Source: Promethearchaeota archaeon (GTDB taxonomy: Archaea; Asgardarchaeota; Lokiarchaeia; Sigyniarchaeales; SOKP01). Taken from it: a stretch of DNA of 64,000 bases. Within the stretch, counting starts at the first letter, position 1. Every line of letters begins with the position of its first letter. Shown one piece after another: positions 6,101-10,932 of the stretch. Position numbers and translations under genes: made by a program. Where the stretch lies: contig JBHLNS010000009.1 of NCBI GenBank assembly GCA_048941285.1, forward strand, positions 36,893 through 100,892. The letters are read 5' to 3'. The notes under the pieces are model-generated. The model ran no database searches. It saw nothing but the letters and a program-made list of their open reading frames with translations, and was not told the origin of the DNA.

Positions 6101-6647
6101 TCTACCATCTGAGATAGAAGCGCTAATGAGCCTGGTTAAAAGTTGTTTGGGAACATTTAGACAATATGAAAACATCGGATTCAATATCCCAACAAGCAAT
6201 ATTAATGAGGGCCCAATAACAACAGCCTATAAATTATATGAGACAATGGATGAAAAAATTGAAGCACAACTTAATTTGGCAAAACTTATTAAAGCTGTAG
6301 AAGCAAAAAAGGTAGCTGAAAAAATTTTAACTACCCATTTCAACCCAGATATACTAGGAAATTTGAGAAAATTTGCCATTCAGAGTTTTCGATGTGTTAA
6401 GTGTAATGAAAAATTCAGACGTCCGCCTTTATTGAACAGTGGAAAATGTCCTAAATGTGGAAATAGAATTATCCTGACAGTAAATCGTGGAGGTATTGAA
6501 AAATATATACCTCGTGCTTTGAAAATTTGTAACGATTTTAATTTGGACAATTACACCAAGCAAAGAATGGAATTAATTGAGGAGTATGTAGAAAGCCTAA
6601 CAAATAACCCAAAAATTAAACAGCATAAGTTATCTGACTTCTTTTAA
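3126..6647 (+). CDS. polC: DNA polymerase D large subunit DP2
   Basis: YFAGPIRAAGGT, RYGRSRNTG, catalytic KRRNCDGDED, zinc fingers and a C-terminal PIP box QHKLSDFF. No intein seen. Confidence 0.97.
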   Translation: MVDISKTMELYFNTIQKQVDKCYSIAEHAREKGLDPELEVESPQAKDLAGRVEKLVGPKGVANIIRTLKKKGLTEDELVFKVVADILDNKIGNIESLEARVDRAIRIGLAIKTMGVVSAPLEGISKISIRNNGYGSNYLSLYFAGPIRAAGGTTAALCVLIADYVRRKSKIPKYEATEAEIGRYVEEVKLYDRNVHLQYPSSNKEIRYAVGHLPIEINGDATEDEEVSAFRDLPRIETNHIRGGACLVLNDGILLKAPKLLKIANAMNLEGWNWLAELKKIAQNQEKVEKNKEQDLKEEIKIPPNSKYVADIIAGRPVFSHPSKIGGHRIRYGRSRNTGLAAAGIHPATMVILDEFVAIGTQLRIERPGKSTSVCPVDSIEPPIVKLKSGDVLKISNINKAKQIFPEIKKVLFLGDLLFGYGEFTENNHILIPSGYVEEWWALELEKSIKDIEIIDKRSKAFIENPFENIPTPVEAIKISREYNIPLHPCYLDFWGNITLEDLELLRNALIKNFSNSEQRITLNYEKSIKKILEKAFIPHKIKDNKILLSLKRSFIFKEIFNLEDKKTIETEKDDDVFTYFFKVSSIKVKNKAPYYMGSRMGRPEKSERKSMKGIHALFPLSDIVGSSRLFEKAMGYSARKNDSNNSIYKKKKSFDFGNKNNIVETGKVKIEVCRKKCVNCGTSSIFNICHNCGGHTELQKICPRCKILFPTFEENCSRCHEPLKTSIEAKFNIRKYVNLTLKSLNVPFPPKFKGIIGLTNEYKVPEPIEKGILRAKNDVLVYKTAEIRYDATDIPLTHFKPSEIDTSIEKLRDMGYELDIKGNPLNDKNQILELKVQDIVLSDDCANYFIKVANFLDDELELFYKEDRFYNISAREDLLGHLAVGLAPHTSAGIIGRIIGFTSARAIYAHPYWHAAKRRNCDGDEDGVMLLLDPLLNFSRHYLPSKIGGRMDATLVIGTKIDPNEIDVESHNLDTLDRYPLEFYEATERYALPSEIEALMSLVKSCLGTFRQYENIGFNIPTSNINEGPITTAYKLYETMDEKIEAQLNLAKLIKAVEAKKVAEKILTTHFNPDILGNLRKFAIQSFRCVKCNEKFRRPPLLNSGKCPKCGNRIILTVNRGGIEKYIPRALKICNDFNLDNYTKQRMELIEEYVESLTNNPKIKQHKLSDFF

Positions 6648-7854
6648 CTCCCTCTTTTCTTATATCAATACTTCTTAAAGCTTGATGACAAATATTAATG
6701 CAACCGTTTAAGGCTTCCAAAGAACATTTATCAGGAGTATCTTTTATTGAATGGATATATTTCGAATCTGCACTTGAATGAAAACAGCTTACTTGAAATT
6801 TACTATTAGTTTTTTTAGCATATTTTTGAAATGATTTATAATCACTATTAGGTTTAATAGCTTTATTATAAATTTTTAATGGAATATTCAATTGATTTGC
6901 TGTTGCCCCAAATATATCATTTAGACTTTTATTCGTTTTTCTTCTAAAAATTATTCCAGATTTATTTAAAAGACCTATATAAGAACCTACCATATCGATA
7001 TTAATATTAAATGAATTATCAAGATCATAAATTTTTTTCAGACTTTTGAAATGAGTTTTACAAAACCTTCTTGAGCCCTTTAGCCCCCATTCTTCAGCTC
7101 CAGGCCATAAAATCAAAACATCCATATTATTGAGCGGATTTTTTTTTAAAATCTTTGCTAATTCAAGTGAAATAGCTATTCCACTCGCATTATCAACTGA
7201 TCCTGATGATGGGCGTTCTCTAAAAACTAAATATAAGATTGGGATTGATAAAAACACTCCTCCAATTGATGAGAAACTTATAAAGATTATTAAAAGATTA
7301 GACAGAGAGAGACGAATTAATGCGAAAAAATCAAAAAGAAAGATAGCTATAAAGACTACAAAAACTATAATATAAAAAACTACAATTAATCTATAAATGA
7401 AAAAAATAATTACTTGCAACCTATATGGAATATTTGCAGAAATTGAATCATAATGGGCAGATATAATTACTAATGGTCTTTCTGGTGTTTTTTCTTTAGC
7501 TTTAATTAATGCGAAGATGTTTTTGGATTCTTCACTCTTTATGAAACTAACTTCGCGAAAATTAGCAAACGAATATTTTAAAATAAAATAAGCGACAACA
7601 ATTAAAATCATGCGAAAAAGTATTAGATTGATTATTATAAGAAGATAACTTGTTCTCATAAGTATTTTTAAAGGACCTGTCCAATCAAAATGTTCGACTT
7701 CGGGAGTAATATTATTTTCTATTAATTCTTTCTCTATATAGTTTAATGCTTCAGTTTCTCCAACAGATGAAGCTGTACGATTAAAGGCTAAAGATTTTAT
7801 GTGTTCCATAGCATTTGGCTCATCATACAATTGTAAATTTGAAATAGGCATCAC
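6616..7854 (-). CDS. M28 family peptidase with transmembrane insert
   Basis: SAHYDS, GSVDNASG, GAEEWGLKGS, NIDMVG and IHSIKDT motifs. The 3' end overlaps DP2 by 32 nt. Confidence 0.85.
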   Translation of the reverse strand: MMPISNLQLYDEPNAMEHIKSLAFNRTASSVGETEALNYIEKELIENNITPEVEHFDWTGPLKILMRTSYLLIIINLILFRMILIVVAYFILKYSFANFREVSFIKSEESKNIFALIKAKEKTPERPLVIISAHYDSISANIPYRLQVIIFFIYRLIVVFYIIVFVVFIAIFLFDFFALIRLSLSNLLIIFISFSSIGGVFLSIPILYLVFRERPSSGSVDNASGIAISLELAKILKKNPLNNMDVLILWPGAEEWGLKGSRRFCKTHFKSLKKIYDLDNSFNINIDMVGSYIGLLNKSGIIFRRKTNKSLNDIFGATANQLNIPLKIYNKAIKPNSDYKSFQKYAKKTNSKFQVSCFHSSADSKYIHSIKDTPDKCSLEALNGCINICHQALRSIDIRKEGVKRSQITYAV

Positions 7855-8083
7855 TTATTTAATTTATTATGTGTTCTTATAATTCAATAATAAATAGAAT
7901 TATAACAAATATAAATGCTCATATTATAGAATTTGAACTAATCAAAATATTAAGTTAGGTAATCTATATCGAAAAAATTAAATGTTTTATATCTATAAAT
8001 GTATTTTATGATAATTAGGTTAGAATATGGCATTTTTATATTTCATCCACAATTTATTGAGATTTATTTGCCTAAAATTAGTG

Positions 8084-8256
8084 TGCAGGAGGTGGGATTC
8101 GAACCCACGAATTTAGGTCGAGGAAGCAATTCCTTCGAAGACCTATGTCACTAGAGCCTCAGTTACGCCATAAACGTATTATTACGTAGTATTCTAGCGC
8201 CGTAGACCAGGCTTAGCCATAAACGTATTATTACGTTGTATTTTGGCAACTCCTGC
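8084..8256 (-). tRNA. tRNA-Leu(GAG) with three introns (8213-8242, 8164-8193, 8112-8139)
   Basis: Removing the three inserts gives an 85-nt cloverleaf: acceptor GCAGGAG/CTCCTGC, anticodon stem CTAGA/TCTAG with GAG at 8160-8158, a long variable arm, and T arm GTGGG-TTCGAAT-CCCAC. Each insert forms a bulge-helix-bulge-like structure. Confidence 0.92.
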
Positions 8257-8488
8257 ATTATGAAAAAAATTGTAATCCAATAATTTAGAGTTTATGAATT
8301 AAGATAATGAATTTAATTTTTAAAATTTTTTTCCTTTAAGATTAATTTATTAAATTCGAACTTTAAATTTTAAGGCTTTCTAACGTTTTCGTTTTCTATA
8401 AATTTTTATAACGAACGTATTATATACAATAATATATTTCAGTTATTTAGTAATACAGTTGCAACCAAAGTAAAAAGGATGTGAGCTA

Positions 8489-9502
8489 TTGTCGGTCGAT
8501 CGAAAAAAACTTGAAGCGCTACTTAAATGGTATAAGCAAGAGATTGGAGAAAACTTAATCGCGACTCTTATTGTGAATAGAGAAGGGTTGGTAATGTCTG
8601 CATTAAAAGGATCTTCTGATACGGAGGTAGAAGAAGATGTTATAGCAGGTGTAAGTGCACTTGTAGAACCTGTTCTGACTAGAATTACAGAAGAATTTAG
8701 TTCTGGTTCTTTTGGAACAGGAACTTTTGACACAGAAGAGCAAAGGTTTATTTTTTGTGAAGCTGGCCCCGAAGCAATTTTTGTGACTGTATTGAAAGCT
8801 GTTGCTATGGTAGATCCTGTATTTCCCTATGCGTATTTAGCTGCTGAGAAGATTGCGAGAATATTTGATGGGAGATCAGTAAGTCCGGTAATTCCTAAAT
8901 TGATCACAGAGAAAGAATCACAAAATATTCAAAGAAAAATAGACAGCCTACAAAAAATTAAGATCAAATCTGGAGAATATGCGTTTAAGCTTATACTTGG
9001 CGGAGAGGGTGGAGTTGGAAAGACTAGTATGGTTCATCGATTCGTAGAAGATTCATTTCAGGTTGACTATAAATCTACAATTGGCACGTCAATAATGAAA
9101 AAGGAATGTGATTTTCAAGGATTAGAGTCAAAAGTTCGTTTTGTAATCTGGGATTTAGCTGGACAAGCACAATTTAAACGAGTGAGACAGACGTATGTTG
9201 CAAATGCTGAAGCAGGTATTTTAGTCTATGACGTTACTCGTAAAGATACTTTGGATAGTTTAGAAAATTGGTTTAATGAGATTAAAAGTGTTTCACCAAC
9301 AATATCAATGATTCTCGTTGGAAATAAGATAGACCTTGAGAATGATCGTGTTATATCCTCTGAACAAGGCGAAAGGATCGCAGAAAAATTAAATCTTTCA
9401 TATATTGAAACATCGGCTAAAACTGGTGAAAATATTAATGATGCTTTTAAAATGCTTGCATTACAAATGATTAAACGTTATGTATTTACAGAAGAAGTAT
9501 GA
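8489..9502 (+). CDS. Roadblock/LC7 domain fused to a Rab-like small GTPase
   Basis: N-terminal roadblock (ATLIVNREGLVMSA). C-terminal GEGGVGKT, WDLAGQ, GNKID and ETSAK. Confidence 0.88.
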   Translation: MSVDRKKLEALLKWYKQEIGENLIATLIVNREGLVMSALKGSSDTEVEEDVIAGVSALVEPVLTRITEEFSSGSFGTGTFDTEEQRFIFCEAGPEAIFVTVLKAVAMVDPVFPYAYLAAEKIARIFDGRSVSPVIPKLITEKESQNIQRKIDSLQKIKIKSGEYAFKLILGGEGGVGKTSMVHRFVEDSFQVDYKSTIGTSIMKKECDFQGLESKVRFVIWDLAGQAQFKRVRQTYVANAEAGILVYDVTRKDTLDSLENWFNEIKSVSPTISMILVGNKIDLENDRVISSEQGERIAEKLNLSYIETSAKTGENINDAFKMLALQMIKRYVFTEEV

Positions 9503-9506
9503 GTAG

Positions 9507-9607
9507 AGCCTCTGGGGGGATTTGAACCCCCGACCTACGGATTACGAATCCTTAACATTTCATTCAACACGAAATAAAATGTTGCTCAACCGCTAAGCTA
9601 CAGAGGC
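9507..9607 (-). tRNA. tRNA-Thr(CGT) with a 29-nt intron at 28/29 (9552-9580)
   Basis: Acceptor GCCTCTG/CAGAGGC. Anticodon stem ACGGA/TCCGT is restored after removing the insert. BHB has central helix AGCA/TGTT with bulges ACA and AAG. Confidence 0.9.
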
Positions 9608-10825: not shown

Positions 10826-10932
10826 GGGCTATTGGCGCAGGCAGGTAGCGCAGCAGGCTTTTAACCTGACATTTATGGGAAGATCTCCCATAAAAAGAAA
10901 GGTCGGGGGTTCAATTCCCCTATAGCCCGCCA
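10826..10932 (+). tRNA. tRNA-Lys(TTT) with encoded CCA and a ~30-nt intron near 44/45 (about 10871-10900)
   Basis: Acceptor GGGCTAT/ATAGCCC, anticodon loop CT-TTT-AA, T arm GGGGG-TTCAATT-CCCCT. The insert has hairpin TTTATGGGA/TCCCATAAA; exact splice sites are uncertain. Confidence 0.88.

Follow-up and report, generated by a model that had tools for sequence, protein, structure and literature searches.

In the Thermoproteales, near-identical BHB introns occupy different tRNA positions, and reviews of archaeal tRNA introns (PMC4033280 and PMC4090602, citing Fujishima et al. 2010) attribute intron gain there to the copying of an existing intron. In the sections that deal with this subject, the same reviews suggest that the BHB requirement defines which target sites are possible (PMC4033280, PMC4090602), and 30/31 is listed as an archaeal intron position (PMC4090602). 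For Asgard archaea, the main text of a 2026 census (bioRxiv 10.64898/2026.10.13.758758) reports repeated gains with no general route of arrival, names gains for Jordiarchaeia and Atabeyarchaeia, and describes copying as tested only between tRNA types. The terms “intragenic,” “Lokiarch,” and “Prometheoarch” each have 0 occurrences in that main text. In the part of PMC5829648 that concerns them, Asgard archaea are credited with an (alpha-beta)2 EndA whose L1 loop confers broad specificity, and this loop is linked to the cleavage of relaxed motifs. The titles and abstracts searched hold no report of a tRNA intron copied within the same gene; Fujishima et al. 2010 or the supplements of the census (Table S11 and Note 4) might list one. 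Here, we describe a tRNA-Leu(GAG) gene with three introns, in which the 14/15 intron is a paralogue of the older 30/31 intron. We consider it probable that this paralogue has, most likely, one origin in an ancestor of at least 11 species and was then reshuffled.

The window, that is, the whole stretch of 64,000 nt that was analyzed, has about 30% G+C and belongs to a genome of 3.55 Mb in 101 contigs. The host is a Lokiarchaeial (Promethearchaeota) Asgard MAG and not a member of the Thermoproteales. The features at the locus are as follows.

8084..8256, minus strand: whole tRNA-Leu(GAG) gene, 173 nt; four exons of 14 + 19 + 24 + 28 = 85 nt and three introns.
8243..8256, minus strand: exon 1, tRNA nt 1-14 (acceptor 5' strand, U8, D-stem 5' strand, A14).
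8213..8242, minus strand: intron 1 (14/15), 30 nt; the derived copy, with a relaxed BHB; in 11/51 orthologues.
8194..8212, minus strand: exon 2, tRNA nt 15-30; 19 nt, including extra D-loop positions.
8164..8193, minus strand: intron 2 (30/31), 30 nt; the donor, with a strict hBHBh'; in 41/51 orthologues.
8140..8163, minus strand: exon 3, nt 31 onward, with the anticodon GAG, as far as the 3' strand of the variable-arm stem.
8112..8139, minus strand: intron 3 (28 nt), located at the base of the variable arm on its 3' side; central helix TAGG/CCTA.
8084..8111, minus strand: exon 4, comprising the last part of the variable region, the T arm, the 3' strand of the acceptor, and discriminator A73; CCA is not encoded.
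8279..8290, minus strand: candidate archaeal TATA-type promoter element, a box rich in A/T that lies 23-34 nt before nt 1 and is conserved among the 6 closest orthologues.
8074..8077, minus strand: candidate terminator, a T run 7-10 nt past the discriminator base.
8489..9502, plus strand: 5'-side flanking gene, 337 aa; synteny anchor and source of the genealogy of the intron-1 side.
6616..7854, minus strand: 3'-side flanking gene, 412 aa; second synteny anchor, with a genealogy that conflicts with that of the 5' side.

Removal of the three introns yields 85 nt that ARAGORN calls tRNA-Leu(GAG), with a 3-bp paired variable-arm stem. This spliced product is the exon sequence of the orthologues that lack the respective introns. 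The cloverleaf is restored, and U8, A14, G18G19, U33, T54-C56, and A58, the tertiary-contact bases, could be read directly in the ARAGORN fold. In its unspliced form, the gene was not detected by ARAGORN, and it scored 22.2 bits with the Rfam tRNA model, which is under the cut-off. Intron 3 was placed at 8112-8139 because BHB cleavage geometry and the orthologues without intron 3 fix the junction. At this register, the TAGG/CCTA helix is 3.91/4 paired over 23 orthologues, about 1/4 being paired if it is shifted by 1-2 nt, and it is the only register that gives both this helix and a paired variable arm. Intron 3 has no relationship to intron 1 or intron 2, with best ungapped overlaps of 10/25 and 11/25. 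A preliminary description of this DNA had proposed a three-intron tRNA-Leu(GAG) with these coordinates and sequences and an unrelated third intron closed by TAGG/CCTA, and both proposals are confirmed.

Among the 11 species that carry intron 1, exon identity is 98.9%, and identities for introns 1, 2, and 3 are 86.6, 77.3, and 79.2%, respectively. BLAST of the host's own genome with the anticodon exon found no second copy, and ARAGORN with introns allowed found 31 tRNA genes in that genome, none of them for tRNA-Leu. Sequence conservation argues that the locus is a functional tRNA-Leu(GAG) gene of a Lokiarchaeial Asgard archaeon, and it is probably the sole one. In the same genome, 24 tRNA hits were above the Rfam cut-off, and a large part of the tRNAs must escape detection because they carry multiple noncanonical introns. 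Elsewhere in the window, there are two further intron-containing tRNA genes, one at 9507-9607 on the minus strand (Rfam, 47.3 bits; ARAGORN, Phe(GAA)) and one at 10826-10929 on the plus strand (Rfam, 50.6 bits; ARAGORN, Lys(UUU)), both with introns at odd positions.

Introns 1 and 2 are both 30 nt long and are identical at 27/30 positions without gaps. A direct-repeat search found the same pair (32 nt, 91%, spacing of 49). The two strands of the genome hold 7,101,044 windows of 30 nt, and among these, the best match to intron 1 other than itself and intron 2 was 22/30, reached in 3 windows. Because 27/30 exceeds this genome-wide best, the two introns are homologous and not merely alike in composition, and the earlier claim that they are copies within one gene stands well above the chance ceiling. 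The similarity begins at the first intron base (within 2 nt) and ends 3 nt before the last. Since these limits match the intron and exon sequence was not duplicated, the unit that moved would have been of intron size.

It is vanishingly unlikely that this arrangement is an assembly artefact or that the gene is a pseudogene. The same 173-nt layout is found in 10 other species assemblies, which makes it common to 11 independent assemblies, and both copies are spanned by contig sequence from an independent run (X4, record 30, 833 nt, 7 differences, gapless). Short unitig pieces from 4 DNA runs confirm the layout. Among the pieces listed from these runs, there was no joint skipping 8213-8242, and the pieces are too short to exclude intron-less alleles. 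The exons are conserved, and the BHB is maintained. Misassembly, which the preliminary description had named as one finding that would overturn it, is excluded by the 10 other assemblies and the bridging independent contig.

To place the two introns in time, we used the genus, which comprises 54 species-level genomes including this one, with the gene lying between the same two protein genes throughout. It was complete in 51/54 genomes; those left out were one in which it is partly masked (L009) and two whose contigs end before the gene (L038 and L054). Intron 2 was present in 41/51 orthologues and intron 1 in 11/51, each of which also has intron 2. Five more distant syntenic orthologues (L094, L097, L099, L105, and L106) are intron-less 85-nt genes that differ from the tRNA described here at 9-10 positions. 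Because intron 2 is found in 41 orthologues against 11 for intron 1, which never occurs alone, and because the outgroups are intron-less, intron 2 is taken as the older donor and intron 1 as the copy. On this distribution, the polarity is clear, with intron 1 judged to be copied from intron 2. Alleles with zero or one copy, for which a search had been proposed, do occur in relatives, as intron-less genes in the outgroups and as donor-only genes elsewhere.

The 51 orthologues have almost invariant exons and eleven intron-content architectures. Introns at 14/15, 30/31, and the variable arm are combined in 11 genomes, 30/31 and the variable arm in 8, and 30/31 and the T loop in 7, and 30/31 stands alone in 6. 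A long D-loop insert with 30/31 and the variable arm is found in 5 genomes, 21/22 with the T loop is found in another 5, and six rarer combinations account for 9. Within the genus, the Leu(GAG) gene thus has at least 6 intron positions, namely, 14/15, the D-loop insert, 21/22, 30/31, the variable arm, and the T loop.

Several peculiarities of individual orthologues were recorded along with these architectures. Seven species (L039-L044 and L046) are without the 30/31 intron and have a 31- to 32-nt intron near 21/22 instead; in 5/7 of them, the T loop is interrupted as well, by an intron of about 35 nt. The D-loop insert, carried by ten orthologues (L010, L011, L012, L031, L032, L015, L037, L053, L035, and L047), is about 60 nt long and consists of two hairpins, the first of which is built on the palindrome TTCTAGAA. 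It is always accompanied by a different acceptor and position 9, GCAGGGGTA and not GCAGGAGTT. Members of both major clades of the flank trees have this 5' module in a scattered pattern, which looks like exchange by recombination. In one genome with the insert (G022), a truncated second copy of the gene's 5' half (L010:2104-2165, minus strand) lies about 480 nt upstream of the gene. It covers about nt 7-38 including the 30/31 intron and is of the type without the D-loop insert, whereas the complete gene has the insert; it may be the remnant of a replacement or integration event. The anticodon loop of one further orthologue (L048, in G069) and of the five outgroup genes L094, L097, L099, L105, and L106 reads CCGAGGC, with C at position 33. 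In tRNAs, position 33 is nearly universally U. Finally, the spacer between the 5'-flank gene and the tRNA, about 230 nt in other genomes, holds an extra 432-aa open reading frame in one genome (L122; G009:C82).

Next, we examined the splicing signals. Intron 2 forms a strict hBHBh' in 41 genes, with the central helix 4.00/4 paired and the outer helix 2.90/3 paired. In the 39 ungapped sequences, 96.8% of 380 cells of this BHB were paired, compared with 22.6-45.0% when the partners were slid. Two of its pairs change on both sides (C-G to U-A, and A-U to G-C or U-A), and the covariation score was 0.132 versus 0.100 +/- 0.006 for shuffled alignments, a value that 0/500 shuffles reached. Intron 1 has an inner helix and a 3-nt 5' bulge as in intron 2. 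In all 11 carriers, its GGCT faces exon TGCC with 3 G-C pairs and a T9·T28 mismatch, and it meets the relaxed, HBh'-like BHB form only. The preliminary description had the shared GGC pairing in both central helices. This is true in full at site 2 (4.00/4) and for three G-C pairs at site 1, where the fourth position is T·T. It had also read the differences at the 3' end of intron 1 as a retuning of the junction, a reading that is not supported in the 30-nt register, in which T28 faces T9 as a mismatch with no gain of pairing; the donor's G in place of T28 would have paired G·U. Splicing is predicted at all sites, and the exact cleavage register at site 1 is likewise a prediction. The minimum-free-energy fold of the whole precursor draws no BHB bulges, as expected, and was not used for or against splicing.

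One alternative at site 1 is a register with a GCCA/TGGC helix of four perfect pairs, in which 28 nt would be removed, two extra A residues would stay in the D loop, and the tRNA would have 87 nt. This register has canonical 3-nt bulges on both sides, and the minimum-free-energy precursor fold pairs GCCA with TGGC. It would also explain T28, which only weakens the helix in the 30-nt register; with 28 nt removed, the G-to-T change at intron position 28 would block a fifth pair with U9 and the helix would stay at exactly 4 bp. However, relatives without intron 1 have GCCAAGCC in exons that are otherwise 98.9% conserved, and intron-less orthologues, together with the covariation of pair 2-24, prove that 30 nt is the register at the homologous donor. 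In addition, the space between A14 and G15 is an unusual place for variation in D-loop length. Given these points, we regard the 28-nt register as unlikely and retain the removal of 30 nt.

The genome encodes a predicted endonuclease for noncanonical sites in the form of two EndA paralogues, which lie on other contigs (C70 and C68) and both have the N- and C-terminal EndA Pfam domains. The one of 198 aa keeps the Tyr/His/Lys residues, and in the alignment, K44 of the catalytic subunit from Aeropyrum pernix (3p1z_B, E 9e-35) corresponds to a Lys in its loop. The one of 201 aa has Asp at the position of the catalytic His. From these features, the host's EndA is assigned to the (alpha-beta)2 type with an L1 loop, the broad-specificity form.

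The preliminary description had inferred a recent transposition and intron mobility that is still active in the lineage. In favor of this are the 27/30 identity in this genome and the loop of its intron 1, in which 2 adjacent bases differ from those of the closest relative (L002) and both match the genome's own intron 2. These two bases could be a short conversion tract or a coincidence. However, 11/54 species genomes match the full 173 nt at 87-100% identity, with the copy at the same site. Because the copy is common to 11 separate species representatives, it is not recent, and from this shared presence, it is dated to before the split of at least 11 species. Furthermore, the identity seen here is at the high end of its range. 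Within genomes, the copies are identical at 27/30 (G000, this genome), 25/30 (G003), and 28/30 (G009) positions and at only 18-21/30 in the other 8 carriers, for a mean of 22.2. The mean between genomes is 21.8/30, and pairing copies from the same genome was no better than random pairing among the 11 carriers (permutation p = 0.14). General concerted evolution of introns 1 and 2 was considered as a separate matter and was not significant by the same permutation. As for continued mobility, a search for the family by a degenerate pattern, in which up to 3 mismatches were allowed, gave 21 matches in 14/54 genomes. All 21 lie inside the Leu(GAG) gene and not over different tRNA genes or isoacceptors of a genome, and the reversed-pattern control gave 0 matches in the 54 genomes. 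No third copy exists in the host's own genome, and neither that genome nor the 54 genomes of the genus hold the family in another host tRNA, where a search with the 30-mer had been suggested. In a genome-wide screen of 66 short-range direct repeats, the signature of an AT-rich repeat with a GC-rich spacer was found only at the tRNA-Leu(GAG) locus. Recent transposition with mobility still active is already contradicted by the shared presence of the copy, and we consider it highly improbable. We read the data as one old event and not an active element, with no sign of ongoing mobility.

Whether the old event was a single gain is a question on which the two flanks of the gene differ. Trees were made for the two flanking genes only and are not genome-wide; RpoB was dropped because the protein, at 96-98% identity, is too conserved. 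In the DNA tree of the 5'-flank gene, on the intron-1 side, placing the 11 carriers in one clade costs 1.63 lnL (p-AU 0.415), so a single clade is not rejected. In the tree of the 3'-flank gene, carrier monophyly is rejected (93.3 lnL, p-AU 3.7e-5), and a single gain therefore also requires recombination or loss. Several origins, by independent copying to 14/15 or by movement of the intron-1 allele between species through recombination, would suit this rejection and the discordant genealogies of the two flanks. The same holds for three other observations. One is that four noncarriers (L007, L026, L030, and L031) are sister to this genome's clade on the 3' flank and have an intron 2 that matches another group (25.4/30 versus 18.5/30). 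Intron 1 is also unusually uniform among carriers (26.0/30) compared with intron 2 in the same genomes (23.2/30), which simple vertical coinheritance does not predict, and the copies of G009 are 28/30 identical. Against several origins, all 11 intron-1 copies have the same site and the same two derived end bases (GGCTAA versus the donor's GGCG plus 2 nt). Because this derived 3' end and site are common to 11/11 copies, a single founding event is suggested, and we hold several origins to be improbable. These data are most simply explained if intron 1 was gained once and recombination then took place inside the gene or beside it, with the invariant exons as likely crossover sites.

The landing site resembles the donor site. 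Its 5' flank is GCCAA, that of the donor is GCTAG, and a count by eye over the 85 nt of the spliced tRNA gave no further GCYRR pentamer besides these two. According to the preliminary description, exon complementarity guided the insertion. The flank does mirror that of the donor, at the only other GCYRR, and to this extent the idea is supported; selection for spliceable sites fits as well. The landing site, as read from the sequence, fits a choice of site by the splicing motif or selection for that motif. Either the mechanism needs pairing of the GCC/GGC type, or only insertions at such a place would stay spliceable. The ends of the copy bear on its origin as well. If the copy was made precisely at the RNA level, its 3' end must have changed twice afterward; if it was a DNA-level insertion that duplicated 5 nt of the target, one change is enough, since GCTAA and GCCAA agree at 4/5 positions. 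That same match, between the last 5 nt of intron 1 and the 5 nt that precede it, is like a target-site duplication and would suit the independent arrival of both introns from an outside mobile element or hairpin module. This origin is nevertheless very unlikely, given that no family member was found outside the gene in the 54 genomes or in the host's own genome and that intron 2 is much more widespread than intron 1.

For a copy derived from the 30/31 intron of the same gene, we infer how it was made from these observations. The copy would have landed at the only other site whose 5' flank, GCC plus two purines, pairs with the GGC of the intron, and this GCC/GGC pairing would restore the central helix and 5' bulge required by the splicing endonuclease. 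Both copies would then have been inherited and would have diverged while remaining spliceable, and the allele would have been reshuffled among species via recombination within or next to the gene.

A more specific and speculative reading, which we think doubtful, is that BHB introns multiply when the excised intron RNA is inserted anew at a tRNA site that mimics the donor flank and that this locus is a fossil of such an event. The target could be in the same or another tRNA transcript. Intron and target would form a BHB in trans, the endonuclease and ligase would act in reverse, and the product would be copied back into DNA. Recombination through the invariant exons would then have carried the new allele from one Lokiarchaeial species to another, and if so, intron 1 would be more uniform than intron 2 because of that spread. 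Two like introns in one gene would also be an exon-skipping hazard, since the donor GGCG pairs with the TGCC of site 1, and this hazard would shape later changes at the junction.

With the 14/15 intron a paralogue of the 30/31 intron, a gained intron is traced to its source within the same gene, at a distance of 49 nt. The event is bracketed by intron-less outgroup orthologues, donor-only relatives, and 11 species with both copies, and this gives a dated pair of donor and recipient that bears on the way in which tRNA introns reach new positions in Asgard archaea. The landing site has the short exon motif that pairs with the intron, in direct support of the view that the splicing motif, and not the tRNA position, decides where introns settle. 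Because one precursor contains the same intron in both a strict and a relaxed form, the gene also offers a natural experiment on the substrate limits of Asgard EndA. Beyond this, one tRNA gene can hold at least 6 intron positions in eleven combinations within a single genus.

Compared with the systems described so far, the locus has parts in common with each. Like the introns in the main text of the Asgard census (bioRxiv 10.64898/2026.10.13.758758), those of this gene are multiple, noncanonical BHB introns, gained repeatedly along the tree. That text also describes many D-arm introns that standard callers miss and two EndA paralogues in most genomes, and both features have counterparts here. 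In relation to the noncanonical BHB and HBh' introns that PMC5829648 describes as cut by (alpha-beta)2 EndA, intron 2 is strict and intron 1 is HBh'-like. The activity of the Lokiarchaeial EndA is predicted from its genes, as is cleavage of the 3-pair helix at site 1. There is also a likeness to the intron families of the Thermoproteales as the reviews present them, with high-identity BHB introns at different sites (27/30 in our case), canonical or not, and with gain by copying. In those accounts, however, the copies are in different tRNA genes and form large families, whereas the Lokiarchaeial donor and copy are in one gene, with two members per genome, in an Asgard host.
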